Below are positions 652-62,139 of a stretch of DNA of 64,000 nucleotides, piece by piece. The notes beneath the pieces were generated by a model, which had not been told where the DNA came from, did not search any database, and saw only the letters and a list, made by a program, of their open reading frames with translations. The DNA is from Octopus vulgaris (lineage: Eukaryota). Numbering within the stretch: position 1 is the stretch's first letter; every line of letters begins with the position of its first letter. A program made the position numbers and the translations under genes. Location of the stretch: assembly GCA_951406725.2 (NCBI GenBank), contig OX597824.1, positions 31,124,001 to 31,188,000 of the forward strand, in the 5' to 3' direction.

Positions 652-1559
652 TAATAGACTAACTATTGAATTTAAGTAATACCGTTTTGTTCCTTTGGCA
701 CTATTTAACCTGTATAAAACGTAAGTTTTGATCTACTTGAAAGCAGAAGATCATTTCCTTTTCAACAGATTTTCCAGAGCTTATCCGAGAATTTCAATAC
801 ATCAGAAGGATTTTCAAGTTACTTTAATTAAGAAAGACGTTTTTGCATTTCTCGTATCTTGTGATATTCTCTTACATGACAAATATCTGCATTAGATTCT
901 AGTGAGATTATGAATCAGAATATGTGTGTGTATTTTTGTATGGCAGAATCGGTGAATCACTAGACACACTTTGTTGTAACAATTAAAATTCCGTTAGCTC
1001 TTTAGTACATTCTGGTTTCAATCCCATTGAACGTTCGTTTAGACGAAATTCCTACAATAAGACATAGATAGAACTTACTTTAATGAATCGCAATTCATTT
1101 TTGTGCAAATTGTACATAGAAATATTTATTGGAATAATACCCTAGATGTGAGACAGTGAGCTTACAAAATCTATAAATGCCAATTACAGAAGTCGTGTTC
1201 CGATTTGTATTTGAAGTTGTTCCAAAACTTTGGTGAAAGTTATGAACGCAACCCTTCATTGTTATATTTAACTTGAGAATATGATGCCTTACATCTTTTT
1301 AGGAGATCATTCATAAACGTCACTATATTATGGTTAATAAATGTATGTAAGTCAATAAACATAGTCCTGAATCAAACAAAAGATAAAAAGTGAAAATGAC
1401 AAACTTTAGGAATATACTTATTATATTGGTGAGAATTTATAATTTGACCTGAAGCTTTCTCTGATGTTTTTTCGTGAACACCAGTTACAAATATTTGGGC
1501 CATGTGTAAGCTCGTCGAGAGGAAGAGCACAACTAATCCAGAGAAATTGCATTATTTTG

Positions 1560-5223: not shown

Positions 5224-5306
5224 GTGCATAGATTAATTATGGAATTACCAAGACGCAGCCGAATGACTGTGATAATTAGGGGCATTCCAAGATCACCTTG
5301 TCTCAG
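5224..5306 (+). CDS. Galectin-like gene A, 83-nt exon (VHRLIMELPRRSRMTVIIRGIPRSPCL-R)
   Basis: TTTACAG acceptor, AG|GTAAC donor, phase 0 to 2; galectin VxIxGxP..R strand; same length and phases as gene B exon 51132-51214. Confidence 0.85.
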
Positions 5307-11599: not shown

Positions 11600-11798
11600 A
11601 TTAACTATGAATTTGAGGAATGGTGGCAATATACCTTTACATATGGATATCCGCTTTAACTATCTGAGAAATTGGAAACAAATTATTTTTGACAACTATC
11701 ATGGTGACTTTATTAGACAAGAAAGAATCAATATGTTTCCATTTCAATGTGATGTCCCATTTGAGATTGAGATATATACAACTCGATGGTACTTCAAG
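11600..11798 (+). CDS. Galectin-like gene A, CRD core exon
   Basis: TTTCTTTACAG acceptor, AAG|GTATG donor, phase 2 to 0; LTMNLRNGGNIPLHMDIRFNY...QERINMFPFQCDVPFEIEIYTTRWYFK carries galectin LHxxxRF and FPF motifs. Confidence 0.92.
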
Positions 11799-12488: not shown

Positions 12489-12512
12489 GTGTGTATGTAT
12501 ATATATATATAT

Positions 12513-12984
12513 ATACAAATTAAATTAGAGATAAAACCACTATTAGGCAAATCAAACAGTAAAAAACATAAACCAAAACATAAAAATATATATAATTAAT
12601 ATAACATACAAAATAGATAAAATTTTAAATTAAATCATTTAAAATTTTTAATTTATATTTATAAATTTCTATATTTATATTTTTTAAATTTCAAATTTAT
12701 AAATGGTATAAACTTTTAATTTTTAATTTTTAAAAAATAAATAAATAAATATAAATATTAAAAAATTAAAAGTTTTTAAATTTATAAATTTAAAGAAAAT
12801 ATAAAAAATTTATAAAAATTTATAAATATAAATTAAAAATTTTAAATTTAAATAATTTAATTTTAAATTTTATATTTTATATATTTTGTATATTATATTA
12901 ATTATATTTATTTTTATCTTTTGGTTTATGTTTTTCACTGTTTGATTTGCATAATAGTGATTTTATCTCTAATTTAATTTATAT
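12513..12984. repeat. AT-rich imperfect fold-back (~220-bp arms) with one-sided tail to ~13050
   Basis: AAATTAAATTAGAGATAAAACCACTATTAGGCAAATCAAACAGT vs ACTGTTTGATTTGCATAATAGTGATTTTATCTCTAATTTAATTT; lies between (TA)n tracts. Confidence 0.9.
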
Positions 12985-13047
12985 TTATACTGTAAAATTT
13001 GATTTAATCCTAAATCTAATTTTTCCCTGTAAATTTGGATTTACTTC

Positions 13048-13823: not shown

Positions 13824-13934
13824 ATTTCTCTTAATGGTATTCTTGCCCACTTCTACAAGAATATACAGCGTGACCTAGTGAAACAACTAGAGATACTGAA
13901 CCAAATTGAGGTTATTGCCGTGGAAATTAAGTGA
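13824..13934 (+). CDS. Galectin-like gene A, terminal exon (ISLNGILAHFYKNIQRDLVKQLEILNQIEVIAVEIK*)
   Basis: TTTAG acceptor, phase 0; continues YFK|ISLNG as in the galectin C-terminal strands; TGA at 13932-13934. Confidence 0.85.
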   Translation: MSLNGILAHFYKNIQRDLVKQLEILNQIEVIAVEIK

Positions 13935-33856: not shown

Positions 33857-36419
33857 TTCTCATATTTTGCTATTCAGTCTAGACACGTTATATCTATGCA
33901 CTTTCTAAATCCTTAATTGTATGTAGTTTACACTCACTATTTTTTCTTTTATTCAACTACATAACACCAAGAGTAGAGAGAACATTTTTAATCAAAGCCT
34001 AACTCTTTTGCTTTGGCTAAAATAAACAATTAGACATTACATAGATATTTCTACAATCTGAGACACAATATGGACAGAGATTAAGATTCTTCATAACCGC
34101 AGTAATTTTTTAATAAAGACAATAGCAGATAACTAACATTAGAATGAAGTGCTATTCATTTAACTAGATGGGTATTTTTAATAATTTGATATTAGATTCT
34201 GATAAATTACTTGAACAATACATAAAGTTTCATTCGTCGTTTTTACATCTTATAAATTGGACTAAGTTATATTGACTTTCTTTCCTGTGAAATAAAGACG
34301 TGACCTTTGCAGTCATTGAGTTACCACTAAAACTTGTGACAATAGACTATTACCAACACACAACAGTCACTTATATCCTTCCCAAACTACGGTTTTCAAT
34401 GGAAAACTAATTGAAATATCGTAACAAGGTAACTAAGCAGTATTTAAGACTCGGATCATCAAAAGCTTACATTGTTATGATATTAGCATCTTCTTTGTAT
34501 TTAGCTTTAATACACTTTACGAAATTGTAGTTTTGACATTTTTATAAGTGTAGAAATCCCACTTTAACATTTATATATTTCTCCTCGTGTAGGAAAAATG
34601 ATTGGATAACAGCAAATGAGCATAAAAGTTATTTCCATCAACCGTCTTCGCTGATTTATTGTTATCTAAGGAAGATAGACAAATGTTTTTTTCAGTTGAT
34701 CTTATATGCATTTCATATATTATTCTGAATGAGTTGACAAAAACGAGTATTTGCTGATAAGTAAAAATGATATTTATTGCTAGAATATAGATAGAAAGTT
34801 AATAGAATATTTTATTGGGTAAAAATAGCGCTTGTTAGTTTTCTCACGTAGATTTCTTAAGTGTTTATTTAGCAAGAATGTCGTTGTAATGAGATTCTTG
34901 CATGTATATCAGTATATATAAGTACAACTATGTGGCATGTATTTTCCATGACCACCATTTCATTCTTTTTACAAGAGATGTGTCACATTTGCTACAGATT
35001 GACCTTATATGCGATTTTCTATGCACAGGATCAGACTATGAAAAGAAAAGAGAGAAAAAAAGAAAAGAAAATATTAAGATAAATAATAACAACGGAAATG
35101 GAGCTAGAAAAATAAGAATCAATGAAGATAGATGAAGGCTATAGAAACCACCTATTTCCATAAAAAATAATTGTAAAATGCTGTGAAATATTTTGTCAGG
35201 TGAATAGGCTTAGCATACTATGCAAGATAGTGTGTATTAGCCGAGCAACAGAGACAAGAATTTTATGGTTATTAATGCCTAAGTATCCTATAGCATCCAT
35301 TAATACTTGCGTGCGGTAAGTGAATATGGTAAGAAAAAAGATAATTGCTTTTTACATTCAATTTGTGTTTACTACGAATACTCGTGTAAAATAAGCTAGT
35401 TCTTTCAAGAATTGTTTAGTTTTAATTCTAATATTTTAGTTTACCAACGAACCGTTTTATACTAGAATGATAGTGTACCACGGAGAAAAGCTTTCATGAT
35501 TTAACACAGCCAATGTGGTGAATTGATAATAAATATAATGTATTTTTTCTCAAGAAATAAGTACAATAAGCTGTTCTTGACCTTTGTATTGGCTGTCATA
35601 ACAAAATGCTCTATAAAATTGCATGCACATTTGGAGATTTTCAGTGAAGTCATGTCTTTAGCAATACTTTCACCTTCATTGCCACACTCAACATCAGCAC
35701 AACTCACCCGCTCCTGCTGTTTGTTTCTTTTACTCACCAAACTTAACCAATGGACATTAACTTTGCCAAGCGTCCCTTACGCACACTGACATCTCCTTTT
35801 CAATTAACTGCTTCACTTCTGGTTCAGTAACGTTACCTGGAACGTAAGGTTCCTGCTGGTGCTTGCTGTGAAAAGTATAAGGAAAATTAATAACTACGAC
35901 TTATTTGAGAAAAAAGAAATGCATTTTAACAAAGGAATTTTGTAATTGAAATAACTACATTCAGCGATTTGGGGACCATCAAACGCTGCATCGAACTGGA
36001 AGTGATAATCATTAAATGTAATAACCTAATAGAATTGTAGGATAAAAATTAAGGAAAATATGATAACCGACCGTTAAGGCATAACAATAATTAAGAGGTA
36101 ATATCTCATTTGCCGACAGAGAAAGAAGCAAAGAAATATTGAGGAATCAATTAATATCTATGACCAAATGCGACTCATAAATAAATATGACTCCAGTGTT
36201 TTTTTTTAAAGTGGGTCAAAAAAGATGTACACAAGAATACGTATAGTCATAAACTGATACTGATGTTTGGTTCCATATAATTATATTCCAGATTCAAATG
36301 GAAACACTTAATTTCCTTTTATGGATTGAATTTCAAGTTTTGGACTCACATGCAGTCAATTTATTGCTTAAACGTTGCCTATATATGAACAAAGCTTGGT
36401 CAAAATTACTTAAGAAGTA

Positions 36420-41407: not shown

Positions 41408-41521
41408 TTAAATATGTACTCCACTAAGACTTGAGTGATCCTTGAATGTAATGTGAAATTCTTTCGCTGGATAACTTGACATAAAACAACCGTTAATAAA
41501 AATACATGTGTATGTATGTGT
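41408..41521 (-). CDS. Galectin-like gene B, terminal exon (THTYTCIFINGCFMSSYPAKEFHITFKDHSSLSGVHI*)
   Basis: IFING..Y...VHI* aligns with gene A ISLNG..Y...VEIK*; nearest in-frame acceptor is (CT)n-CACACATACAG at 41522-41523. Confidence 0.65.
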   Translation of the reverse strand, partial: THTYTCIFINGCFMSSYPAKEFHITFKDHSSLSGVHI

Positions 41522-41544
41522 CTGTATGTGTGAGAGAGAGAGAG

Positions 41545-41585
<41 letters not shown>

Positions 41586-42280
41586 GTGAGTGGCAAAGAG
41601 AGTGAAAATATTTTCATTCGAGTGTGCTTTTGTGCATGCGTGTGCATATATTGTAATATATTAATGACAAATTTTCCGTTCCTAACTATAAATCTAGGTA
41701 GTATCGAAGAAAAAGCTTTACTTGATTTCAATAGTTGTGAGCAGAACTTTTCCCCAAACTGCTATGATGGTCACTTTTTCAAGAATAGCAGGAGATAGTT
41801 TGTAGTCTGTGTAGTGATGTCCATTGGTATAAATCTAGGTTTTGAAATAAAAAGGCAATAAATTTCATTGAAGTCGCAAAATTAATGAATGAAATGTATG
41901 AATAAGGCGAAGCAATGCAGAACACAAAATGAAAATGTGAATACAGTCATATCTAGTACCATTCATCAATAATTCACTGAGAACCAAAAATAATTTGTAA
42001 TGTATTTCTTTTTACTATTTTACAGGTTTTAGTAAGATTATTGAATTGCGATAAACCAATGACGGTATCGATGTCTGCAGTAAAACGGTTATAGTGAATA
42101 ATTTACTGAGACTTATTTTGCTGGTACTGAGGGGATGAATAGAAAACCCATCAGTAGAATTTGAACAGTAAATTAATAGAAGAAATAATAGGGCAACCGG
42201 AATTCTCTAAAGCTGGTAATTGTTTCTAAACCTGCTTTGTCATTTTTACGTGAAAGCAAAATAATATATTTGTATATATT

Positions 42281-43120
42281 TCTTTATTGCCCACAAGGGG
42301 CTAAACATAGAGGGGGCAAACAAAGACAGACAAAGGGATTAAGTCGATTACATCGACCCCAGTGCGTAAATGGTACTTAATTTATCGACCCCGAAAGGAT
42401 GAAGGCAAGGTCGACCTCGGCGGAATTTGAACTCAGAACGTAACGGCAGACGAAATACCTGTTGCTTTATTACCGACAAGGGGCTAAACATAGAAGGGAC
42501 AAACGAGGACAGACAAAGGGATTAAGTCGATTACATCGACCCCAGTGCGTAAATGGTACTTAATTTATCGACCCCGAAAGGATGAAAGGCAATGTCGACC
42601 TCGGCGGAATTTGAACTCAGAACGTAACGGCAGACGAAATACCTGTTGCTTTATTATCGACAAGGGGTTAAACATAGAGGGGACAAACGAGGACAGACAA
42701 AGGGATTAAGTCGATTACATCGACCCCAGTGCGTAAATGGTACTTAATTTATTGACCCCGAAAGGATGAAAGGCAAAGTCGACCTCGGCGGAATTTGAAC
42801 TCAGAACGTAACGGCAGACGAAATACCGCAAATCATTTCGCCCGGCGCGCTAACGTTTCTGCCAGCTCGCCGCCTTAAAATAATATATATTTCTTTATTA
42901 CCCACAAGGGGCTAAACATAGAGGGGACAAACAAGGACTGACAAATGGATTAAGTCTATTACATCGACCCCAGTGCGTAACTGGTGCTTAATTTATCGAC
43001 CCCGAAAGGATGAAAGGCAAAGTCGACCTCGGCGGAATTTGAACTCAGAAAGTAGCGGCAGACGAAATATCGCTAAGCATTTCGCCCGGCGCGCTAAAGT
43101 TTCTGCCAGCTCGCCGCCTT
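42281..43120 (-). mobile_element. Tandem array of four SINE copies (two truncated, two full length)
   Basis: Units start near 42281, 42465, 42649 and 42891; flanked by AAAATA(A/C)TATATTTGTATA at 42258 and 43121 (TSD-like). Confidence 0.92.
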
Positions 43121-43307
43121 AAAATACTATATTTGTATAACCAGCTGAAATCGTGAAGGTTGTCATCTTTGCAATACATTGAATTTTTAATGCCAATATA
43201 ATTTATTTTTCCATCTGTTTACATATATACAATATTCAAATGAAATGTTATATGTAGTCGCTTTCAGATCTTGTCTGCTTTATTACTCAATCAAAACCTA
43301 TAAAACA

Positions 43308-44789
43308 TTAGAGTAATGATTTTTAAAATTTTTTTCTGATATTGAACATGGCCAGGATGACTTGTTATGAGAAATGATGAGAAAACAGTGCCTAGCAGTT
43401 CACTTTTTTAAAAAATCTTTGGGATCTTTTCGGTTTGAACGGCAGTTTTTTCTAGCGGTGTCATGAAATTGTCACCCAATAATTATGACCCTAGTCTCGA
43501 TCTATTGCATTTCAATCTGTTTTAGGGTTAGGGGCGGGGGAAGGGTATCTTTTTTTCTTCAGAAATGTAAATAAACCCAATCTGTTTCTTAAACGAGGGA
43601 CATATTCATACGTCACAGAATGTTTTCAGCTCAATAGACGTCATTGATTGGTTGAAATTGCAGAAATTGAAGAAAACAACAACAAATATCTTACAAACTA
43701 TAGAATTTTCTCAATAAAGCCAAGAGAAAAAGATGTTTTATAAACACATTCTACTAGTATACGAAGTTTAAAAGTGTTTAGTTACGTGGAAATTATTTTT
43801 AAAAAACTGCCGTTCAAACCGAAAATAACCAAACTTTGAAACACCTCCCCCACCAACTAATATTTCTATTTTCAAATGTGTCACACTTGCATTGCCTTAG
43901 TCAAACTCACATTACGTTCGGTATTAGTGCTTCACATTATTTTATTAGATTTAAAGGAGTTTATGACTGAAGTTACTTCCTGGCCAAATGTCAATAACTA
44001 TATACACAGTAGTAAACGTTGCTTCACATTTTGAGTAGTATTATCTGTTGTTGAGATAATTCATGAATGCATTATTCTTTCTATTGCAGATATTAAAATA
44101 TGTTGCTTTAATCAGTGAAATAAAAACATCAATCATGTCATTTAAGCAGACAAGTCAAGCAACTGCAGTAAACAAGAAAAAGTGGCAAAAAAAAATAATA
44201 ATAATTTGAAAAATCTATTAAAAAGCGAAGAATAATACTGAATGTGAAACATGAGTTGACTGAACTAACTAGAATCCCCAGAAAATCCGGTATCACTGGA
44301 AGGTATAATGTATTAGTAAAAGTTTAAAAATCCAGACATGCAAGAAATCAGCTCATTGCTCAGAAACTAGAGAATCTATGGAAAAAAAATTTGATTTTCT
44401 GTATATAACATTAAGGTTTATTGTAAGGAAAGTAAATATTCTGTTGACAAGGTATGATACCCTTTTGAAACGTCCGAACTAGGTCAAAATTTTGAAGATT
44501 TGTTTGACATTACTAATCAACATGGCAGCTGGTTATCTGAAGAAGACAAAGACTTTTACAGTACACAAATTCGAAGTGGCGGTATAAATGGCTACACCAC
44601 ATCTCAGTCAGCTATGGTTCATCCTTCAAAGGGAACATTTTCCTCATCAAGAGTGGCAGATTCATCTTCACAAGCGTTTCTCCCATATGCTGAAGCAGGT
44701 AAAGTAACGTGCCTGAAGAATTCTCAAATATTACACAAATTGTTTTGTATGCATTGATGCCACTAATATGAACTCATTTCTTGCAGATA

Positions 44790-44845
<56 letters not shown>

Positions 44846-46282
44846 GAAACTCCTACTTCTGATTCTGCAGATGAAATCACATTACCAATAGACGGACGAG
44901 TAGGTACCTCTAAACAACAGCATTCAACTCAGAAATCAATGAACTTGCTGAAAAAACAAAAAAGGAATTGAAGCAGTCATAAAGCAGCCAACGTCTACAA
45001 ACAGCTGAGAGAGGAAGGAGTATATCTCCCCACTCCGTCACAGTCAGGGGTGTACAAAGCTGCTATGAGAGAGGCTGCAAAGATGAAGCAGGAACTAAAA
45101 GAAACTTTACAAAAATAACCAGTGGGTGCCCTATTTTGATGGAAAGGTTATAAAGGGTAAAGAACGTTGTTGTGAAAACCAACACAAGAGAAATTAGATT
45201 AGCAGCACTAACTCGAAAAAATGGCAGAGCAGATAGCATTTTTCAAGGACAAAAGGAAGTTTTGGATGATTACGAATTGTGGCCAGTAATCAAAATAATC
45301 ATCACAGACACTTGTAGTGTAAATGCAGGAAAGCATAATGGAGTGGTCATTCAACTTCAGAACGAATTTGTAGAGCGACGATATCCTGCACCTCAATACA
45401 TTGGTTGCCAGCATCATGTATTAGACCGCCTCCTAAAACATGTGATGGATGATACACTGAAAGGAAAACCTGCATCACTTAATATATCATATCCGTTCAG
45501 AGACGATTTAATGAAAAGCTATGAGGATTTGGTGTCAGAATGAAAACACGACGAAACAAAACTTCAAATGGATAATAATCCTGGTTGAAGAGATGATCTT
45601 AAGTTTTCATTTGAACTTGGTCATGCTTTCCGATTTTATCAGCAACAAAGCATTTTCCTAGAAATTAAGTTTAGAAAACTCTCCTAGAATTAGCAATGCA
45701 CGTCGGAATTCACGAGCAATCTTAGCCATTCTCACATACATGCCTCTGCCACAAAATAGAGAAATCTCTACGATGTGTGTTGTTTTATCAGCAGAAACTG
45801 GATGGAAATGTGGTTTTGTGACCAAAGGTTTGACAGCATGGCCTACCAGAAACTTTCAGAAGCAGTTTCTGGAAATACTAAAACAAGCAAATGTTTGAAC
45901 GTTAATTAGAATCTTGAAAAATCAGTGATTCAAGATGTTCAGCGTTCAAATATATGTGCTGAACGTGCAGTAAAAATAATGAGGAATTAGATTGCAGGTC
46001 TTCTGAAAAATTAAATCTACGATTTGTTTTAACCAAGAAGAACCTTTGAAAACTACTGTTGTATTAGTCTGCATTTATTACATTAACAATGCATAACAGT
46101 ACAGTACGTCTTATTACTTGAACAATATATTCATGTCCCGTAGAACAAGTGTTGTCAAATATATTGTCATCGGTGGGGGAGTGTTTTGTGAAAGAAATGA
46201 TTATGATTTTTTTGCCATTATACCATAAAGTTCACCATCTGGTACCATGGCCTTACTCGACTTGAAAAAAATCACCACCCTA
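43308..46282 (+). mobile_element. hAT-superfamily (hATm-like) transposon, disrupted
   Basis: Right end reads TTAGGGTGGTGATTTTT on minus, left end TTAGAGTAATGATTTTT; LYFDGK, ITDTCSVNAG, IGCQHHVLD, NICAERAVK motifs; (TCA)n at 44790-44844. Confidence 0.75.
43421..43830. mobile_element. MITE nested in the hAT element
   Basis: TIRs TTTTCGGTTTGAACGGCAGTTTTTT / AAAAAACTGCCGTTCAAACCGAAAA. Confidence 0.85.
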
Positions 46283-46435
46283 ATAAAACATCTATATATT
46301 TCTCGCTCACGCGGTTACCTTCGTTCAAGTACAACATAGACACTCACAGTGAAACCTGATTATTGCTCCGAAATAAATGAAATAACGATAATTTATAGAT
46401 ACTACTATGAAGAACATAGCAACACCTTCACATAC

Positions 46436-46658
46436 CTTGTAACGATCTAATTCTTCCTGTATTGTTATATTAAATTGCTCACCACAAGTAAATGGGAAAC
46501 GGGAAGATATATTTCCACCATTCCAAAAGCCTTTCACTCTGGTCGCATAAAGAACTTTCTTTCGATTATAAGAATGACTTCCATGAAACCGTATATCAAA
46601 ATGTAAGGCTACATCAGAATAAGTTACACTAATATTATTCATCATATTGAATGCAACT
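46436..46658 (-). CDS. Galectin-like gene B, CRD core exon
   Basis: TTTCAG acceptor, AAG|GTATG donor, phase 2 to 0; [24 protein letters not shown]...[32 protein letters not shown]. Confidence 0.92.
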
Positions 46659-46709
46659 CTGAAACGATATAAAAATAAAGCATGACTCAATTATGTATAT
46701 ATGTATATG

Positions 46710-46756
<47 letters not shown>

Positions 46757-46806
46757 AAGTATATTTGTATATATATATATATGTGTGTGTGTATACATAT
46801 GTTTGT

Positions 46807-46847
<41 letters not shown>

Positions 46848-46850
<3 letters not shown>

Positions 46851-47321
46851 TTTATTTGTGAATTAAGGCTACCATTGGTTTCATGTTAAGAAAAGTAGGA
46901 AAATATCCCAGTGTCTTAACAATTTTTCAAGCCGATCACATGGAAAAAGGTGTTCGCCTGCATTTTGGAAAACAGTCTTTTCTCGTCTACGGTATTTCTT
47001 GTAAATTTACGTAAATGAAATTATGAAACAATGAATTAAGGGGCGTTGCTCTAGGGTGGGGCATCTTTTAGAGTTTGACAAATCCAAGAGAGACAAACTC
47101 TAAAAGATACCACCCTAAAGTAACGTCCCTTGATTCCTTATTTCATGGTTTCCTTGATGTGAATTTACGATAAATCCCGTGAACGAAAAATGATTGTTTT
47201 CCAAAATGGAGGCGAATACCTTTCTCCATGTGATCGGCATGAAAAATTGGTAATAAACTAGGATATTTTACAGCCTTTCTTAACATGAAACTAATGGCAG
47301 CCTTAATTTACAAATAAAGAA
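46848..47321. repeat. Imperfect fold-back, arms 46848-47077 / 47094-47321
   Basis: TTCTTTATTTGTGAATTAAGGCTACCATTGGTTTCATGTTAAGAAA vs TTTCTTAACATGAAACTAATGGCAGCCTTAATTTACAAATAAAGAA; ~16-nt loop. Confidence 0.92.
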
Positions 47322-47459
47322 ATTACATATCAACCAATGTAGTGTTGAGCACTCATTTCATCGTTCGATATTAATCATTTCAGCTCTCCGGTTTTATCCG
47401 GTGTATCAGTGGAATACTAAAAGATGTTAGCTGCACATTAATGGATATGGGTATATTAC

Positions 47460-49498
47460 TATTTATGTATAAGAAAAAGAAGAAAATGGAGAAATTGACA
47501 GATAGATATCAATTTATTGAAACTAATCCAAGTTCGAACAATATCAAACTCATAGAACCTACAATTATTTCCATGTCCAATCAATTAATTCAAATTAGAA
47601 AAATTAAATTAAAGACCCATATTAAATTATAGCTAATTGAATATTTTGTCAGGTTCAGAATTTGATAGAAAAAGGAACTACATCCCAATGTGTTGATATA
47701 TCATTGGTAGACTCAGCATTAAATTCAGATACGTGCGCTTGTGCATTCTAATGTATTTTGAAAAAAAAGTTACTTGTGTATATACTACTTTGTTTTGATT
47801 TATTTATGCATGTGCACTAATAAATCTTCTAACGTACAAAGGGAAACAACCCACGTTGGATCCCATCTTAACCTAAAGACTAGCGGTAGGAACAATAATT
47901 ATAATGAATGTAATTATATAAATAAAAATAGAAATAAGAATAAAAATGAAAGTATATATTGTGATTGCAAATTTAGAAATTACTGTTTGTTTAAAAATTA
48001 TTGCAAGCAAAAAATGTAGTATATAGATGTAAAGTGAAACCTGAAGGTAAAATTATTTCTGTATCGGTTCAACGGAAAATTATGTCAAAACACGTATTGC
48101 TGACCATCAATACATCTTTAATAATAAAAATAAGTCGGCTTATACCAGTCTTAGCAAATTAATTTAGGACTTGAAGGACAAGAATAAAAAGTATAGCATA
48201 AAGTGGGAAATAAGCCATGTAGATACTAATTGTGACCTTTGTATTGAAGAATTATTTCAGATTTTGACTTCTAGACGTAAGCTTCTTACGGGGGGGGGGG
48301 GAATCCTGTGTTCACGCCTGTAAATATGTATTTAATAATTACCATTAAAATAAAATGAAAACGTTACTAAAACAATAAGTTAACTATCTTATAAAACGAC
48401 TATCTAAAAATATGTAGAAAATCATAATTATAATTAAAATAATAAGTAATATTAAAGTAAAAAATACTATGTATTAATTGGATAATGGATTAAATATATT
48501 AACTTTGATTACACTAATATTAATGTGTATTCCTCAATATGTATGTTTTTCTCCTTGTTATAATAAAAATATATATATTGTGCACAAATCTTGATGACGT
48601 AGTGTACAGGTATGATATATAGTAAATAGTTTGAATTCGTCATCATCACGTAGTATGTGGCAAACAATAGATATATTTATGATTTAAATTACATTAAATA
48701 AATTAGTACTTAATTGTTAATACTATTAATTGTAACCAAGAAGCTTAGAAAATAATTCTTAGTCGATATTACAATAAAAAATCAAAGAAAAAATGTATTG
48801 TATACAAGTCTTGCCGATGTAATATGCTGCTACCGTGCTATGAAAACAGACTGAATTTCATCATGGTCATGTTAAATTTCATCATGGTCATGTGATACAT
48901 AGTTAAAGTATGATTTATGTTTTAAATTATAAAAATGAAAATTCAGCATTTAATTATTAATACTGGAGGTTATATCTAGGTGACTTACAATATAATCCTT
49001 AACTGATTAAAAAACTTTACTGACGTTTCGTACTTTCACAAGTAGTAATGAAAATTAGGAATAAATGTTTTTAATTACAATTAACTGTGACAAAATATCG
49101 TTTAGACAATCTAACGGCTCCTTTGTTTTTCAATACATTAACACAGGCATGCGCACAAATAAATTAAAACAAAGTTGCATATATACAAGTAGCGCTTTAA
49201 AAAAAATACATTAGAATGCACAAGCGCACAATCTGAATTTAATGCTGAGTCTATCAATGATATATCAACACATTGGGATGTAGTTCCTTTTTCTATCAAG
49301 TTCTGATCCTGACGAAATGTTCAATTAACTATGATTCAATATGAATCTTTAAATTAATTTTTCTAATTTGAATTAATTGATTGGACATGGAAACAATTGT
49401 AGGTTCTGTGAGTTTGATATTGTTCGAAATTGGATTTGTTTCAATAAATTGATATCTATCTGTCAATTTCTCCATGTTCTTTTTCTTATACATGAATA
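47460..49498 (+). mobile_element. Penelope-like GIY-YIG remnant bracketed by ~350-bp inverted repeats
   Basis: Arms ~47460-47815 / 49147-49498; internal CDCKFRNYCLFKNYC, VVYRC, CIGSTENYVKTRIADH, CDLCIE at ~47950-48250. Confidence 0.85.
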
Positions 49499-51131
49499 CA
49501 TACATATGTGTGTGTGTGTTTATTTATGTATGTATGTATACATGTAGATATATGGACATGTATCAAGTAGTGGGGAATGTAGATGATCTAGCGAGTAATT
49601 TGTTAGCGACTCCAACGCATATTTGGCTAACCGTACTCAGGAAGGGTACATTATTTCAAACTATCATTCAATAGGTAAGTATAACAGACAGTGGAATGCA
49701 AACGGTTGTATATTGATATTAATCATTCTGTGCATCCATTTATGTGATAACAAATGCCGTACATTTTACGTGGTGTATAAAATAATAAAGGAATATGAAT
49801 GGACAGCTCAACTTATACCATGTACATTTCCATAGCACGGCTATTTATTCAATAACTGTTAGTAATATTACATAATATTTCATATGTTACATTATTACAT
49901 AACCACACAATTTCTTCGGGTAGTATTGAACATATTATTAGTGAAATCCATGTGTGAAGAAAATTGTTAAAATTAAATAATGAATTTAGAAGGTTCTTTA
50001 GAAAAAAACAGTCAATAAAAGCACTTCAGTTGGGATGCGAAAATTGAATTACAATCAATCAACAAGTTTTATTTTCAGAGAGAAGTTGTAGTCATAGTAA
50101 TAATGGTAGATTTTGCTGGTTGACAAGGAAGTAGTTTATTCTATATCCGTTCATTGAATAAATTCATTTATCAACCAAGAGTTTATCAAGAGCACTTACA
50201 GCAATAAATTATTTGATTAAACAATAGCGCTTAAAGCAAATTTGGACAACGAAGGAATAGATATGCAGACAATGAGCTGTTATTTGTCCGCCAATCGTCT
50301 ACACGTATCAGTAAATAATTTGTTTGCTGATTCCTGTAAATAAAATCTTATACTCTTATAAGATTCATCGGTCCAGCTGTGGGGTTACCTCAACTAAGGT
50401 GACACACAATCAGCCCAAAATACCGCGATGTTTTGAAGTATCATTTCATCTGTAATCCAGTGGATCACATATGCTATGGACTCACGTCACCAAAACAGAA
50501 GATGCGCTCTCCTGTGGCGATAAACAACAGTGATCAGGTATTCACGTTCAATCTGCCACAAGGTGTTTAGAATAAAAAGATAGGTTGTTGTTTAGATTCT
50601 CGTTCTGTGTTCACATGAATTATTGCAATGTAGATTTTTTCTCAAAGTTCCTTAATTTTTCTCTTCCATTAGCTGAATGACTTTTCGTACAACTTTTTAA
50701 AAATTGTTTTAAAGTCTCTAACATTATTTGAGAAAGAATAATTCTCGGTGAAGTGTAAGAAAATCAGGCTTTTGTTTTTGTTTACCTTCAGAAGGTGGGA
50801 TGCAAGAATGTCTCAAAGATTTAAAGTGATGAACCTTTGACCATGGAAGTGTTATGGTCTCAACTCTCACAGCATTTCTGCTATATATTTTAGCAGGAAA
50901 GTAAGTCTGCCAATTCTATAAACAATAGATTCCAATTCAAATTCAGACTTAAATAGTTTCTAATAAAAAGGACTTTTAATTGAAAAATATTTGCTACATC
51001 AATACCACGACCTACTTTATTCAAACAAAAACTGTAAATACGAGAGCAAAATATACTATAAATGACCTGTTGCATAATATATTTTGTCATCGTTATTTAT
51101 AGCAAAAGAAATGTCTAGTAAGAATTGTTAC

Positions 51132-51214
51132 CTTGTGCAAGGATTCACGAAACGACCCAAATAGGTCACTCTTCTATTTTTACCTGGTGGTAAATATGCA
51201 TCCATCATAACTGG
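51132..51214 (-). CDS. Galectin-like gene B, 83-nt exon (PVMMDAYLPPGKNRRVTYLGRFVNPCT-R)
   Basis: TTTTCTTTTCTATACAG acceptor, AG|GTAAC donor, phase 0 to 2; matches the gene A 83-nt exon. Confidence 0.88.
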
Positions 51215-51743
51215 CTGTATAGAAAAGAAAAGTAATTATTTTGCATAAGTAAACAATGTTTCAAATCTTCCTGTTTTCTACAACGTTCTGTCTTTGCTAA
51301 ACTTACGAAAGACTGGTAAGATAAATAAAGAAAAACATGCTGCAAATAAAGAAACCTGTAAAGAACACAGTAACAAATAAAGAACATTGTAACAAGTTGA
51401 AACAGAAATATGTTGTGATTGGACTCCAGTTAACTGAATATAGACTAGAGCATCCTCTACGTGATGAATAGCATACATTATCTAAACAGCAATTAAACTG
51501 TGAAAACATGAAGAGAATACTTCAAAACATTTAGTCATGTGCTTTTCTACTTCTCTTACACAATTTGTTTAACAAAACGCATCTTCAACGCTCAATATAT
51601 TTTCTAATTTAGGAAAGAAAACACTACTATGAATAAATTTTAAAGAATTAAAATTTCTGTGATGTGACATATTAATTCCATAAGAAGAGTGAAGTGTGTC
51701 AAAAATGTGTGCATTTATGCAATTGGAAATTTCATTTAAAGAA

Positions 51744-52648
51744 TACGATCGGTACCCAAAAGTAACCGGAACCTTTTTTGTGGGACAAGCCCGTTGTAGT
51801 TTGGGCATCCACCGCTAGAACCCAGTTAATTCAAACCTTCAGACATCAGTCTGCCGACCGGCGTCTTTTACTGGAGTCGTACTGTCGAGTGGTGCGTCTT
51901 TGTTTTGCAATGCTTCTCCCCGGTTCGTCGATTTTCGTGGTGGCTGAAACGAAGGGACAGATAGCATCCGTGAAATTCTGTTTTCTACTGGGGAAAACGG
52001 CAGCCGAAACAGTTGTCGTGCATCAAACAGCTTACAAGGACGCTGCCATGAGGAAAGCACAAGTTCACGAGTGGTTTTTACGCTTTATTAATGGTCACTT
52101 GTCACTTGGAGACCAACCTCATTCAGGGCGGCCGTCAAACTCCCGAACGAATGAAAGCATCATGAAAATTCATGAACTGATCTGGAGAGCTGTCGTTGAA
52201 CAATTGGTGGACTTGTTGATAGGTTTGAGTGTCCTGCAGCTCCTGCCAACGAATTTTGAACGAGGAATTGCGAATGAAAAGAGTTAAAGCAAAATTTTGG
52301 CATCGCTTGCTCACGGAGGATCAAAAGCAATCACGAATGAATACGTGTCGTGAACTGAGAGAACAGTTGGAAGTTGATCCGGACAGTTTTTCGAAGATTA
52401 TTACTGGTGATGAAAGCTTGTGCAAAAGAACTTGCAGATGTAGGAAAGGTGAAGAAAAAAACGATGGAGGCGTTGAACGGCATCACTTCGTAAGAGTTCC
52501 AGCACTGCTTCGAACAGTGGAAAGCGCGTCTGGACCGATCCATTGCTTCAAATGGAGAAGACTTTGAAGGCGATAAAAGTGTAAACGTAAAATTAAGTTA
52601 ATAAAATAACATGGCAAAATTCTTGTTTCTTTTGAGTGCCCCTTCGTA
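51744..52648 (+). mobile_element. Internally deleted mariner element
   Basis: TA-flanked imperfect TIRs; SVKFCFLLGKTAAET, HSGRPS, IITGDES then a jump to the C-terminus. Confidence 0.9.
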
Positions 52649-53703
52649 ATTATTGAAACTGATTTTTTCTTTAAATTAAAAATACATTATTATTCTGATA
52701 TTTATACAATCACATGGTTATAAGTACCTTAGTAGTTAGTTTGGGAGTGTCGGGCTACTTTTGAGAATTTTGTTTACGACTGAAAAACATCTCATCTAAA
52801 AGATTCGGACATCTTCTTAACGTCACGGAATCAGAATTAAACACTAGTTCATACGAGCGCTTTCACGATTTGGCCATATTTCACACAAGACATAAAGATA
52901 ATACACATGCTTTGAAATCAAGATCCCGATTCGCATTTAACGAAAGATAATTTATAGATAAATAGATAGATAGACAGACATACATACATACACAGACGCA
53001 GATACGCACTCGCATACACATACTCACACACACGCATATATATATGTGTATAAACATATATGTACATACATACATACATACATACATACATACATACATA
53101 CATACATACATACATACATACATTCATACATACATATAAGGGAGGAATTTCGATCATCACCATGTTGTGAGTTGTACCTAAAATATATATGTAAAATAAA
53201 AGGAGGAAAATGCACACACTTTACATGGTTTTAATATATTTTTTAATATATTTTATATTGTGTTTGACGACCGGTTTCGCTTTCGCTAACCATGATACTG
53301 AAATTATTGTAATTTCGTATTTTCTTAAGGAGATTTTAGTCCATTTTGTGTATGGAAAAGTTTGTGAATAAATGTTAAGTAGAAAAATCTCAGAGGAGGT
53401 AATTGGTGATCATTATTATTAGGGACAGGGGAGGTAATTGTTCATCTTTCGGGGCGAGGATAAATGAATATATATATACACACAAAATCTCAAAAGCTAA
53501 GGTAGTGAGATAAAATATGTACAATGATGGGTGTGTGATAATGAATTAAAATATATACTGAAATCAAAGCTGATTATGCTTTAGACGTGTTCTGTATTTT
53601 CGATGTCCGTTGAAAACAAATTGTACTGGATTTCACTTTAGTGCTCTTGGTATGAGAAATGTCTAAAACCTTAAATGGTATTTAGAGATTCAATCAGAGC
53701 GAT

Positions 53704-54438
53704 TATATATTAGAGAGTAAAGGTAGGAAAAGTTATATCTTAAAAATCGCAGTAGAGATAATTCTATAATATAAGCAATATTGCATTAATAAATAAAGTC
53801 CAGCTATGATCATAAAATTTTGTTTTTAAATTTTGAAAGTGCTTACGATCCTTTCATGAATATACTACCACTCGAAATGAAATCTAAAGCTGATAAGCAT
53901 TATTTGGAAGTTATATCCACTCGCCAGAGAAAATGATTAATTTCGGTGTAGTAAATCGAATGATGGAAATGCTATTTAAAATCGGATGAGAAAGGCGTTG
54001 TTTAAAAAGTTGTAGGTATGGATCTGTGTTGGCATAAATTTGAGCTAAAAATTCTGAAAACTGGTTTTATTTTATTTTTTCGAAATTTTTAGCTCAAATT
54101 GTACTGACACAGATCTATACCTATTACTTTTTAAACAACACTTTTCTCATACGATTTTAATTGGTATTTCCATCATTCGATTTACTACACCGAAATTAAT
54201 CCTTTTCTCTGACGTGTGGATATACTTCCCAATAATGATTATCAAATTTAGATTTCATTTCGAGAGGTAGTATATTCATGAAACGATCGTAGTAACTTTC
54301 AAAACTTTATAAGAAAATTTTATGATCATAACTGTACTTCATCTGTTTATTTATTAATACAATACTACTTATATTATGGAATTAACTCTACTGTGATTTT
54401 TCACATATAACTTTTCATAATTTACTCTCTAATATATA
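53704..54438. repeat. Imperfect fold-back, ~355-bp arms (53704-54060 / 54077-54438)
   Basis: ATTAATTTCGGTGTAGTAAATCGAATGATGGAAAT vs ATTTCCATCATTCGATTTACTACACCGAAATTAAT. Confidence 0.92.
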
Positions 54439-54628
54439 TGTATATGTATATAAATGTATATATACATATATGTGTGTGTGTATGTATGTATGTATGTATG
54501 TATGTATGTATGTATGTATGTATGTATGTATGTATATAAATATATAGCATGGCCACAGCTCGTGAGCTGAAACTAGATAAAAATAAAAATAAAAATAAAA
54601 ATAAAAAATATATATATATATATGTATG

Positions 54629-54659
<31 letters not shown>

Positions 54660-54661
<2 letters not shown>

Positions 54662-57572
54662 CATCATCATCATCCTTTAACGTCCGCTTTCTATGCTGGC
54701 ATAGGTTTGACAGTTTAACAGAGGACTGGCGAGCCAGATGGCTGCACCAGGCTCCAATCAGATCTGGCAGAGTTTCTACAGCTGGATGCTCTTCCTAACG
54801 CCAACCACTCCGAAAGTGTAGTGAGTGCTTTTACGTGCCACGGGCACGAGGGGAATTGAAGCGGTACTGGCAACGGCCACGCTCAAATAGTGTTTTTACG
54901 TGCCACATGCACGGGAGCCAATCCATCAGCACTAGCAACGACCTCGCTCGAATGTTGTTTCTCACGTGCTACCGGCACAAGTGCGAGTAAGGCGACGCTG
55001 GTAACGATCACGCTCGAATGGTGCTTTTTGCGTACCACGACATGGGAGCCAGTCAGTGGCCCTGGCAACGATCACGCTCGGATGATGCTCTTAGCGCTGC
55101 ACTAGCACGGATGCCAGTCATGCAGTGCTGTCATCGAATTTGATTCCGATTTCACTTGCCTCGGCAGGTCTTCGCAAGCAGAGTTTAGTGTCCAATGAAA
55201 AAAAGGTACGCATAAGTGGGATGGTTACACCACTGCCATAGGCCACGGGTTATGGTCTCACTTGGCTTGCCGGGTCTTCTCAAGCACAGCATATTTCCAA
55301 AGGTCTCGGTCGCTAGTCATTGCCCCGGTGAGGCCTAATGTTCGAAGGTCGTACTTCACCGTCTCATCCCAGGTCTTCCTGGGTCTACCTCTTCCACAGG
55401 TTCCCTCAACCGTTAGGGTGTGACACTTTTTCACACAGCTATCCTCATACATTCTCACCACATGACCATACCAGCGCAGTCGTCTCTCTTGCACACTACA
55501 TCTGATGCTTCTTAGGTTCAACTTTTCTCTCAAGGTACTTACACTCTGTCGAGTATGTACACTGACATTACACATCCATCAGAGAATACTGGCTTCGTTC
55601 CTTGCAAGCTTACGCATGTTCTCAGCAGTCACGGCCCATGTATTTGTACACAAGCGTCATACAGTCTACCTTTTACTCTGAGCGAGAGGCTCTTTGTCAC
55701 CAGCAGAGGTAGGAGCTCTCTGAACTTTGCCCAGGCTATTCTTATTCTAGCAGCTACACTTTCAGAACACCCACCCCCGTTACTGACTTGGTCACCTAGG
55801 TAACGGAAGCTATCAACTACTTCTAATTTTTCTTCCTGGAATGTGGCAGAAGTTGTTCTCTGCACATTTTCAGTGTTTATTGTTCCTGAGCATCTGCCAC
55901 ATACAAAAACTATCTTCCCAGTTAGCCTTCCTTTGATATTGCTACACTTCTTATGTGTCCATAGCTTACATTGGGTACATCTTATAGAGTTTCTACCTAC
56001 GCCTTTTCTACAGATCGAGCAGATTTGTAGTTTGTCTGCCTTCCTACTTATTAGGACTTTGGTTTTAGCTTGGTTGACTCTAAGGCCATTCGATTCTAAT
56101 CCTTGCTTCCACACCTGAAACTTCTCCTCTAGTTCTGATAGTGACTCAGCGATTAGAGCAAGGTCATCAGCATACAGGAGCACCCAGGGGCACCTTGTCT
56201 TGAAATCCTCTGTTATTGCCTGGAGGAATATGATAAATAGGAGGGGCTGAGGACTGAACCTTGGTGGACCCCTACCTCTACCTGAAATTCTTCACTGTAT
56301 TCGTTGCCAATCCTCACCTTACTGATAGCGTTCCTGTACATGGCTTGCACAGCTCTCACTAACCATTCATCTATCCCTAGTTTCCTCATTGACCTCTAGA
56401 TAAGGGATCGGAGGACCCTGTCAAAGGCTTTCTCCATGTCAACGAAAGCCAGGTACAGAGGTATTTCTCCTGCAGCTGTCTTACCAGAAATATAGCATCA
56501 GTGGTGCTTTTCCCTGGCACGAACTCAAACTGCATCTCATCTAAACCGACTCTTTCTCTAATTAGTTGGGCTATGACCCTCTCCGTGACCTTCATTACCT
56601 GATCCAACAACTTGACACCTCTGTAATTATTTGTATTTAAAGCGTCACCTTTACCTTTGTAGCAGTTGACTATGGTGCTGTTACACCAGTCATTGGGCAT
56701 GACTCCTTCAGGTTAACTATACGGGTGACTAGGCTATAGCCGACACCGCCAGATATTTTGAGCATCTCTGTGGTGATTCCGGATGGGCCGGGTGCTTTCC
56801 CTGTCTTCATACTTTTCAATGCTTTATCTACCAAGGTACTGTCATTTCGGATAGCTGGTCCCTCTGTTGGGTCGACATTCGGTAGACTCTCTTTATCCCA
56901 TGCATTTTCTTTATTCAGCAACCTTTCATAGTGGCGTCTCCAAACCACTCTCTTTGCATCCTCATTTAGGGCAAGTGAACCATCATCTATGCGGACACAT
57001 TTCTCTCCTACCACATCACGATTCTTTCTCACACACTGTCTTGCAACACGAAATACCTCAAGTCTTTGGCCCTCACGGCGCAGAACATTGGCCAATTTTT
57101 TCTTATTTGCTCCCCCTCTGGCTAAATAAACCTGTCTCCTAGCTTCCCTTCTGACAGCCTGATACAATTCCCTGCTACCACCATTCTTCCAGTCCTTCCA
57201 AACCTGTTTCTTTTCTCTAATAGCCCTGTCAACCACATTGTTCCACCACGACGTTATCTTGGGTCGAGAGGGGACTTTGCACCATCCACAGATCTGATCA
57301 GTGACTCTCAGCATGTTGTCCCGTAGAAACTGCCAGTTGTCTTCCACATCATGTGATGCTATATCCCCTTCTATTTCATCAAGGGCTTCGAGTAATACGT
57401 CTCTAAATCTCTGTCCATTCGCAGGATCTTTAAGCTTCCAGACACTTCTCCTCCATGCTGGTCGTATTCTAAGCATCCATTTAGCCCTGATCCTGAAGTC
57501 GCTAATTACTAGTCTATGTTGAGGGGTACATTCTTCGCCTGGGAAGGTTTTGGCATTTATAAGTAGCCATCT
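54660..57572 (-). mobile_element. RTE-clade LINE, 5'-truncated and frameshifted
   Basis: GKAPGPSG, NYRGVKLL, GVHQGSVLSP, LLYADDL, RRLRWYGHV, RGRPRKTW; (GAT)n tail at 54660-54673; a short related 3' fragment at ~60713-60845. Confidence 0.95.
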
Positions 57573-58172
57573 TAGGTTAGTTAAGATATGTTTGTGACAT
57601 ATTTCAACTGCTAAAAAGCAAATATACTACAGTTACTTTGAAGTAAATATTTCCCTTGTGGTAAAAGGTGTGAAAACCCAGTTTTTTTGTGTCGCCATCT
57701 ATCAGGAATCCCAGACTTTATTGACACTTGTCAATGGGATGTACTTAAGCGAGACAACTCTGAACAAGCTTATAAAGCAATAGCTTTATGTAAAATTCAG
57801 TCAACTGATATATTATTATTGATGTTGTTGTTTTTGTTTAAAGCAGTTTGATTCGACTTAAGTTGCTTGAAGTTTTCTAGGTCTTTACAGAAACCATGCA
57901 CGTCGGGCTCGGGTTGCCATGTAACCTGCCTTTAACAATGGCAGTCCAGTTTCTGGTAGTCACATCGAAGTTACTGCACCTCTCCATTCGGCCACCTGAA
58001 GCTGACGAGCTAGATTTCTGTTAGACTCCCACGAAATTTAATTTGCATGACACCGAATGAAATTGTTCAGAATAATGTATTTAACTCCTAAATGCGCTGA
58101 GTACCTCTTTCTTTTTGTTCACACACGTATGTACAGAGAAAGTGAAAGGAAGAAAGATAAATAGATAGAAGG

Positions 58173-58231
<59 letters not shown>

Positions 58232-59393
58232 TTAGATAGATAGATAGACATATTGTAATAAATTTATCTCACATACGTGATAAATTGATTTCTTTCATTA
58301 GCTCTTTAAAAAATTATAAGTATCAACAATTTACAGTACAACTTTGCTGAGAAGTATAAACTGGAAACGTACTCACTAATGGAAGCATCAGCTGTTGCAT
58401 TATGTCCACGTCAGCATAAAAGACGTTTTAGACACGCATCAGAAATATTATATTTCGTTATGTTAATAAACTTCAAAATTAAATATAATATACAATTCTA
58501 AATGCAACAATTTTATAAATTGCAAACATTTTTATCGAATACTGTTGAATTTTTATACTATCAGGAGCATAGACAAGAATTGATTACTGAAGTTTGAAGG
58601 TGAGCTGAGGAAATGACGCAAAACTACCACAGTCACAAATTTAGATAAATTATGTAGGTGGTGGTGCATTGAATGATGTGAGCAAATAGTTTGAAATGAA
58701 GGGAAATGTAAATTATAGAAAAATGTAAAAAAAAAAGCAAACTGCGCGCTCATTATTAACAACAGGGATGAAAAGGAAGTGTGTTACAAAAAATGCAAAC
58801 TTAATTTTACTAAATATTTTATTTGCTTGACAAGAAAGAAAATTTAGGACGTGTTAGTAAGTAAGAGCCACCATATTTGTTGGTCATGTTGACTCTTTTT
58901 AACATAGCATTTTCTACTCAAGTCTGCTAGGATGAATGAATACTGGAATTTAGACAAATAAAAAGTAATTTATATAAAATATCCACGGTAAATTTTGAAA
59001 AATTACAGAAAATAAGCATCAACAAATGTCTCGGGATGGTAGGTTGACGTTATTTTGTCGATGTATAGCAACAGAATAAAATGTTGATGTAGAATAGAAT
59101 ACAATGTTTATTCAGGAAATTTTCCATTGGAAACAAATGAAGAGAAAATATTTAAAGTTTTCTTAGCTGTACTATTGTTTTACATTTTTATTTGTACTAG
59201 TGTTTTACATTAAATATTCCGACATCAACACTGGTAAATAACATTTAATAGGAATCAAAAACCTTAAATGAATATCAGGCGATACCAAATACTTTGAATC
59301 GTATTTCTGAAAGATTTTCATCCAAAGATGGGATTAACTGAAAAAATAACGTACAAAATAAAATGAGAGAATCAAAAAAATCATGTCTCTTAC

Positions 59394-59555
59394 ATAAGTA
59401 GGTGCTTCTGATTTCATATATTCTCCAATCACTAACGAGTTCCTGCGAATACGTTCTTGAATGCATCCAATTTCATCCGCATGTTGATCACACTTTAGGC
59501 TGTATACATCATAAGCAATGAACAGAAGGCCAAAACAATACAAATACAATTCCAT
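59394..59555 (-). CDS. Galectin-like gene B, first coding exon (signal peptide + pro-segment, 54 aa)
   Basis: CAACAATGG start with in-frame TGA 9 nt upstream; MELYLYCFGLLFIAYDVYSLKCDQHADEIGCIQERIRRNSLVIGEYMKSEAPTY; phase-0 donor GTAAGA joins to PVMM, giving galectin-like PTYPV. Confidence 0.75.
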
Positions 59556-59876
59556 TGTTGCTCAATGACAAAGTAACACTGACAGCGCGACGCTAATGAT
59601 GTGGCACTGAGCAGAAGTCGGAAACGAACGATAGGTTTTTAGACATGAGTTCGTGTGTTTCCGTATCGAGCATATTCCAATTTTACAAAAACGCCAAAAA
59701 AAAACATTGTCCAGCATCTATTTCCGTACATTATAACTTATACATGCATCACTACATAGAAAAAGTCTATGTGGCTGGCAACTTGGATTTTCTCCTATAT
59801 TACAATGAAATCCCAACCATTTACACTGCATAAGATCGGCACTCAGTGTCTGTCTCTCTTACACTATTTATGGTCA

Positions 59877-62047: not shown

Positions 62048-62139
<92 letters not shown>

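Follow-up and report, generated by a model that had tools for sequence, protein, structure and literature searches.

A galectin-like gene of Octopus vulgaris with a TMED10-related first exon probably belongs to a secreted, fast-evolving octopod family

We analysed a 64,000-nt stretch of the Octopus vulgaris genome (contig OX597824.1, positions 31,124,001 to 31,188,000 of the forward strand; here referred to as the window), in which a reading made from the sequence alone had proposed a four-exon gene for a secreted "prepro-galectin" on the minus strand between 41408 and 59555. Our analyses make it probable that this gene belongs to a chimeric, likely secreted, and fast-evolving octopod family of galectin-like proteins, in which the leader was derived from the adjacent gene TMED10. 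The TMED10 origin of exon 1, an array of paralogues, and the partial loss of galactose-binding residues had all been missed in the sequence-only reading. Positions without a prefix are those of the window, and C11 is the contig that carries it.

The gene is real, but its last exon had been placed wrongly. In window coordinates, its features are as follows:

59556..59669, minus strand: 5' flank/untranslated region, homologous to the TMED10 5' flank and apparently co-duplicated with exon 1; putative promoter
59394..59555, minus strand: coding part of exon 1, with the predicted signal peptide (residues 1-19) and a putative relic of the TMED10 GOLD N-terminus (residues 20-54); phase-0 donor
51132..51214, minus strand: exon 2 (83 nt, entered in phase 0 and left in phase 2), with Cys80 and the first galectin-domain strands; both junctions in a run X1 contig
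46436..46658, minus strand: exon 3, core of the galectin domain (PF00337, E 5.6e-8)
41722..41834, minus strand: true exon 4, last strands of the domain; supported by contig ends in X1, X9, and X11 and by P0003
41408..41521, minus strand: last exon of the sequence-only reading; intronic, in none of the contigs, acceptor inside a CT/CA microsatellite
35757..35865, minus strand: exon 5, a 35-residue C-terminal tail with sequon N205 and Cys222; based on P0003

Splicing was followed in contigs from public sequencing runs, the type of which was guessed; splicing itself identifies these contigs as RNA. A 431-nt contig from run X1 starts at 59426 and bridges 59394>51214, 51132>46658, and 46436>41834, which bears out the first two of the three junctions originally proposed. 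The third, 46436>41521, was entered in none of four runs; rather, X1, X9, and X11, which carry three organism labels, proceed from 46436 to 41834. Exon 3 is represented by contigs in all four runs (X1, X2, X9, and X11), with that of X2 stopping within the exon, and the loose contig ends match the exon ends in the window letter for letter. Exon 1 was touched in one of four runs (X1), over its last 33 nt, while X2, X3, and X5 had no contig on exon 1, which counts neither for nor against it. Two apparent joints, 58488-58713 and 45068-45104, are repeat matches and were set aside. Thus, the four proposed intervals do have GT-AG borders and encode a 193-aa protein with the features described, but 41408-41521 is not the last exon: it scored a profile E of 21 compared to 6e-6 for the true exon 4, and it was not detectable as a copy of that exon by DNA comparison.

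The corrected structure agrees with XP_029643127.1 (P0003) of Octopus sinensis, a 229-aa protein that is labelled only "galectin-4-like" in the database and was the single match in a protein word-index search with the exon-3 peptide. P0003 matches five exons in the window (59555-59394, 51214-51132, 46658-46436, 41834-41722, and 35865-35757) with one difference, A14V. In Octopus bimaculoides, exons 1 and 2 are annotated together in two proteins (P0009 and P0154), and the identity to the gene in the window is 82% over 82 aa. Reading through exon 4 leads to a stop at 41720-41718 after IEIK, in agreement with the stop of the paralogues described below, and the protein either ends there (194 aa) or has the 35-residue tail added (229 aa). 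At 41718-41723 on the minus strand, the ancestral Lys-stop, AAG TAA, includes the GT that the O. sinensis model uses as its exon 4 donor, and this arrangement indicates that, in that model, a stop codon was converted to a splice site that added a new tail. The exon 4>5 junction was reached by none of the contigs on exon 3 in the four runs, and exon 5 had no informative homologue within the 464 kb searched.

A genome search with exon 1 gave two further matches, both local. The sequence at C11:31218042 (plus strand), 35 kb from the gene and head-to-head with it, is the first exon of TMED10/p24delta as identified by a PF01105 match over the cut-off and by TMED10 chains in the PDB (5azx, E 2e-12; 21gl, E 1e-11); further intact TMED10 exons follow at C11:31.226-31.234 Mb. 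The two first exons are 43% identical over 49 aa (E 2e-13), and their DNA alignment (63-67% identity) spans the 5' flank, the ATG, the exon, and the phase-0 GTAAGA donor, with a score of 229.5 compared to a maximum of 107 in 300 shuffles (nhmmer E 3e-20). Based on this homology, exon 1 almost certainly arose when the front end of TMED10 (5' flank, first exon, and splice donor) was duplicated, and it has since diverged. In the best 150 of 286 HMMER hits, exon 1 was matched only by P0009 and P0054; P0022, from the same search, is an unrelated repeat protein. P0002 and P0003 have no PF01105 match, and their alignment to TMED10 is confined to the exon-1 relic. P0009 had no PDB match at E 10, and the TMED10 link is therefore visible only via the octopus TMED10 exon.

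With TMED10 alone as the query, the 514 kb surrounding the gene yielded 13 related copies (E 3e-20 to 0.04), and three control regions (150 kb) yielded none. ATG, frame, and donor are intact in six of the 13, i.e., in exon 1 and in five leaders of the paralogue array, and broken in the other seven. We considered and rejected the idea of a dispersed transposon with the TMED10 5' end as cargo: genome-wide DNA searches gave two matches and one match, respectively, all local (copies below ~65% identity escape such searches). Additional traces of TMED10-like sequence were observed. At C11:31199768 (minus strand), 16 kb upstream of exon 1, lies a broken second copy of exon 1 and its flanks with ~66-74% DNA identity, a frameshift, and stops. 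C11:30893170-31124862 contains many decayed remnants resembling TMED10 exon 1, several per array unit, and several of these have ATA aligned to the ATG. C11:49252237-49252767 (plus strand) holds an intronless p24/TMED-family frame (244 aa open) over the whole PF01105 profile, possibly a retrocopy. One remnant lies in the window; it was missed by the TMED10-only query and detected with a five-copy profile (E 2.4e-12 and 4.4e-10 for its two pieces):

654..862 (second piece 139-238), plus strand: decayed TMED10-exon-1-like remnant without an open leader frame

The hydrophobic N-terminus, two Cys residues, RIRR, and three sequons (N90, N131, and N145) described earlier are all present, and the suggested cleavage near VYS|L gains support from its position, which corresponds by homology to where mature TMED10 begins in solved structures. 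The homology indicates that the predicted signal peptide derives from that of TMED10. Because the solved TMED10 chains start at residues aligned just after VYS, the Cys/RIRR segment, read earlier as a pro-segment, appears to be a relic of the N-terminus of the TMED10 GOLD domain. Within it, Cys31 was apparently inherited from TMED10, while Cys22, shared by P0009 and P0054, is new (Phe in TMED10), and RIRR is aligned to EIHK. In the galectin-like protein, 35 residues separate the signal from the galectin domain, and no immunoglobulin (Ig) family was found there in a Pfam scan. The evidence for a signal peptide in this leader consists of TMED10 homology and hydrophobicity; the ATG has A at -3 and G at +4. 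Based on these sequence features, the protein is likely routed through the endoplasmic reticulum (ER) and secreted.

The galectin fold of the carbohydrate-recognition domain proposed earlier holds: PF00337 matched residues 67-192 (E 1.5e-18), and Foldseek matched galectin-9N (E 1e-12, template modelling score by target ~0.8) using an AlphaFold2 model with a predicted local distance difference test (pLDDT) per block of 63-92 over the domain and 39-50 over residues 1-60. ESM Atlas returned only generic galectin clusters. Compared to the signature H-x-N-x-R, V-x-N, W-x-x-E-x-R, the protein keeps H101, R105, and W127, and has D103 for N, A120 for N, G130 for E, and I132 for R. D103 is also Asp in the parent domain described below, which keeps the Asn, Trp, and Glu. 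Sequon N131 sits within the former W-x-x-E-x-R motif. The three sequons are all found in the orthologue P0017 (65% identity) and are absent at those positions in the parent, which suggests that they are new; by shuffling, at least three sequons in the domain have a chance of ~13%. The mature protein is basic (isoelectric point [pI] 8.7), with further basic clusters. Because the galectin signature is incomplete and the leader is homologous to the TMED10 signal peptide, unlike in a leaderless cytosolic galectin, we refer to this predicted secreted protein with a galectin fold as galectin-like.

The lectin exons also have a probable source on the same contig. Exons 2-4 were most likely copied from the C-terminal domain of a two-domain galectin at C11:55.19-55.21 Mb, as judged from DNA similarity to the parent-domain exons for exons 2, 3, and 4 of the gene in the window and for exons 2 and 3 of array unit U5 (E 3e-5 to 5e-13). 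Specifically, the galectin at C11:55.186 Mb has a C-terminal-domain exon to which exon 2 is similar, and exon 4 aligns at 65% identity across 208 columns with the last exon of the parent and its flanks (E 5e-13), the parent's Lys-stop (AAG TAA) being retained. A tree supports the parent domain with 94/94. The parent domain begins at a phase-0 acceptor, so that a copy would splice in frame to the TMED10 first exon. Matches of the family to galectins are weak, with galectin-3 as the best match for the U5 exon, compared to E 3e-27 to galectin-9 for the conventional parent. Conventional octopus galectins were observed at C11:55164846-55205920, C11:33137085-33162700, and C3:144465404-144499797 (two two-domain genes and one four-domain gene); several of their domains have H-x-D-x-R or H-x-N-x-R with non-canonical neighbours.

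On the plus strand, PF00337 picked up another five central exons (C11:30.96-31.14 Mb), including one in the window at 11600. They form an array of five tandem units (U1 to U5) that spans C11:30949135-31137934, with units ~40-45 kb apart and alignable blocks mostly 85-96% identical. The first exon of each unit is 38-39 codons long, encodes a hydrophobic core and VYS, and has a phase-0 donor. An 83-nt exon 2 that agrees with that of the gene described above in length, phase, Cys, and GTAACA donor is present in U2-U5; U1 has no exon 2. Four of the five units (U2-U5) are predicted to encode full open proteins of 168-169 aa with a pI of 9.4-9.9. The derived leaders share a two-codon shortening relative to TMED10, which argues for one original capture. 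A protein word-index search with the U5 exon retrieved no protein record. The parts of U5 in the window are as follows:

5224..5306, plus strand: U5 exon 2, 83 nt; exon 1 of U5, probably derived from TMED10, is at C11:31118227, outside the window
11600..11798, plus strand: U5 central galectin exon (PF00337, E 3.2e-5)
13824..13934, plus strand: U5 last exon, ending in VEIK and a stop

Among the four array genes, 77 of 130 domain positions are variable. Nonsynonymous divergence (dN) in the domains is 0.18-0.34 compared to a synonymous divergence (dS) of 0.025-0.13, giving a dN/dS of ~2-7.5 (Nei-Gojobori; six of six pairs, Fisher p 0.0002-0.034, pairs not independent). Differences are twice as frequent at first and second codon positions as at third positions. 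The exons have diverged by 18-20%, the signal codons by 4.7%, and the adjacent non-coding DNA by 0.7-8.4%, i.e., the exons are ~3x more diverged than the non-coding DNA next to them. These rates are the pattern of positive selection, for the array and not for the gene on the minus strand.

Several observations weigh against the account of a secreted, fast-evolving chimera. The contigs do not cover the signal-peptide codons, as the sole exon-1 contig extends only to 59426, which is 9 nt upstream of Met47; the leader has a shorter and weaker h-region than TMED10 (best 8-mer Kyte-Doolittle score 2.7 compared to 3.2); and the N-terminal 54 residues were modelled with a pLDDT per block of 39-50. 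The O. bimaculoides RefSeq model P0154 exits exon 2 into unrelated sequence and lacks the galectin core, and in the array the exon-1 to exon-2 joins are predictions and not from RNA. The parent branch, at 94/94, is below the starred threshold, and branches are long; the tree itself does not join the gene in the window with the array, and the secreted genes form one clade in only 6% of bootstrap trees, so that the tree does not settle one versus two origins. Positive selection was seen for the array and not for this gene, the six dN/dS pairs are non-independent, and gene conversion could lower non-coding divergence.

Three other readings of the data were weighed. Of the "prepro-galectin", a signal-bearing and probably glycosylated galectin fold stands, based on the TMED10 homology and the kept sequons, while the propeptide and furin part is weak. 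According to that part, a furin-type convertase would cut RIRR|NS after signal cleavage, freeing a disulfide-looped 19-residue pro-peptide and leaving a mature lectin that starts with NSLVIG. RIRR does fit R-x-R-R; shuffling gives a ~1.3% chance of R-x-[KR]-R within the first 35 mature residues; both Arg gains over EIHK are common to three lineages; and a secreted protein would encounter convertases. However, the sequence is RIRR only in the window and P0003 and is RIRK in both O. bimaculoides proteins (P0009 and P0154) and in P0054. With Lys at P1, the furin consensus is not conserved and furin cleavage is doubtful, although the dibasic pair (RK/RR) is kept. Moreover, the segment is accounted for as a GOLD relic, none of the five neighbouring array leaders has an equivalent R-x-R-R site, and the mature protein is basic, with other basic clusters. 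We regard propeptide processing as possible, with the balance of the evidence against it.

If translation instead started mainly at Met47, the product would be a leaderless cytosolic galectin-like protein, and the TMED10 copy would have provided only promoter and untranslated region. Although the sole exon-1 contig begins 9 nt before Met47, its depth is 4 and it has no loose end, so that its end is uninformative. Met47 is retained in P0009 and P0054, but its context is weak, the 46 upstream codons are open in four sequences (window, P0003, P0009, and P0054) while alignment of the flanks requires frame changes, and Met47 has no equivalent in the five array leaders, in which ATG and hydrophobic core are kept. 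We consider such a start very improbable. We regard it as very improbable, too, that the genes are transcribed, drifting, and functionless chimeras produced by local duplication. Many decayed leader copies, a U1 unit without exon 2, low contig depth (3-6), an eroded binding site, and a protein identity to P0054/P0017 (63-65%) no higher than that of translated flanks fit this idea. On the other hand, frames and splice sites are intact in the gene described here and in four array units while seven of 13 leader copies have decayed, the sequons and Cys residues are conserved, and drift does not give a dN above both dS and non-coding divergence.

For the chimeric, likely secreted family, we propose the following history. 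TMED10 would have given rise to many local duplicates of its 5' flank, first exon, and phase-0 donor, and three promoterless exons of a galectin C-terminal domain, beginning with a phase-0 acceptor, would have been copied beside the leader copies. Once one leader copy was spliced in frame, promoter and signal peptide would have been gained at once, and the gene would then have duplicated to give this minus-strand member and the plus-strand array of five units. Signal peptidase would cut at VYS|L, and the product would be routed to the ER, N-glycosylated, and secreted. The new Cys22 may pair with the orphaned GOLD Cys31, and Cys80 and Cys140 might also pair. The loss of three contacts and the sequon in the old W-x-x-E-x-R motif could reduce self-binding to ER glycans. 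Such a protein would likely function in extracellular recognition of foreign or gamete surfaces, with a specificity other than lactose, rather than as a standard beta-galactoside lectin, and the array's amino acids change faster than silent sites, as would be expected in an arms race.

As to where the proteins act, in our judgement the reproductive tract or egg coat comes first, mucosal or immune sites second, other sites third, and saliva or venom last, none of them reaching an even chance. More specifically, we tentatively suggest that repeated copying of the TMED10 front end gave rise to a secreted family under diversifying selection for sperm-egg or egg-coat recognition in the oviducal gland. 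A study of the O. maya oviducal gland lists a "galectin-3" transcript that is up at fertilisation and has a best hit of only E 1.5e-6 (PMC8976471). With its weak match, as is also seen in our family (in which the U5 exon matches galectin-3 best), this transcript is a suggestive tissue lead only, as the search programs differ.

The window has other features. A tandem repeat of 184-244 bp at 42273-43132, with related copies at ~21850 and ~28020, is probably a short interspersed nuclear element (SINE)-like element. Large inverted repeats lie at 12508-12989, 46837-47330, and 53704-54438. Long frames at 15111-16751 (plus strand), 55261-57626 (minus strand), and 62139-63563 (plus strand) resemble reverse transcriptase and are presumably retroelement remnants.

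Nearly all galectins avoid the ER; members with a signal are rare, and the origin of their leader is unexplained. Here, an intact leader donor is adjacent, failed copies surround the successful ones, and the lectin domain has a likely donor on the same contig, so that the birth of a secreted family by exon capture may be read stepwise. Given the changes that would accompany re-routing (new cysteines, new sequons, and an eroded galactose site), natural proteins can be used to test why galectins lack a leader. The dN/dS values make the array a candidate for a role in reproductive isolation or host defence in octopus. If the gamete-recognition idea is true, the family would be the first such candidate in cephalopods, as well as a natural test of ER avoidance by galectins.

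The suggestion that the gene represents an undescribed family is supported, in that an octopod family of signal-bearing proteins with a galectin fold emerges from our data. In the literature searched, which left most subscription journals and bioRxiv supplements outside, we found no description of such a family or of a TMED10-galectin fusion. Signal-peptide gain by exon shuffling is a known route. Kutzner 2020, cited in PMC8497297, reportedly concerns the addition of a signal to a galectin. Lysin, bindin, and conotoxins represent secreted recognition or toxin families that evolve fast and combine a conserved signal with a variable mature part; the array resembles them only in evolutionary pattern (signal codons 4.7% compared to exons 18-20%, dN above dS), with no sequence relation. 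The 5' flank, signal peptide, initial GOLD residues, and donor almost certainly come from TMED10/p24delta/Tmp21 (PF01105), but the octopus gene lacks the complete GOLD domain, coiled coil, transmembrane anchor, and cytosolic tail of p24/TMED proteins. TMEDs are reported to influence how galectin-1 and galectin-3 leave human cells by unconventional release (bioRxiv 10.1101/2025.05.04.652080); we read this effect and the TMED10-derived leader as a coincidence.

Galectins are described as cytosolic, non-glycosylated, and leaderless in a review (PMC13084444), the lack of a signal is given as a feature of vertebrate galectins (PMC8497297), lophotrochozoan galectins generally have two or four domains (PMC8878817), and one haemocyte galectin transcript is mentioned briefly (PMC4199593). 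The octopus protein resembles canonical galectins (PF00337; galectin-3, -4, -8, and -9) and molluscan tandem-repeat galectins in fold, three-exon domain, H-x-D-x-R, and W, and differs from them in its predicted signal peptide, sequons, single domain, and the loss of three canonical contacts. GREP of snails (signal peptide, immunoglobulin superfamily [IgSF] domain, and galectin domain) is a molluscan secreted chimera ending in a galectin domain (PMC10875847), as is predicted for the octopus protein; GREPs are reportedly restricted to heterobranch gastropods, with one gene in B. glabrata (PMC8878817), and the octopus gene has no IgSF domain and thus falls outside GREP (VIgL). Sponge galectins (Geodia cydonium; Chondrilla australiensis hRTL) are likewise single-domain proteins and have a cleaved leader, as is predicted in octopus; they keep the beta-galactoside residues and have no leader donor named (PMC13084444), whereas in octopus the probable donor gene is identifiable and adjacent.

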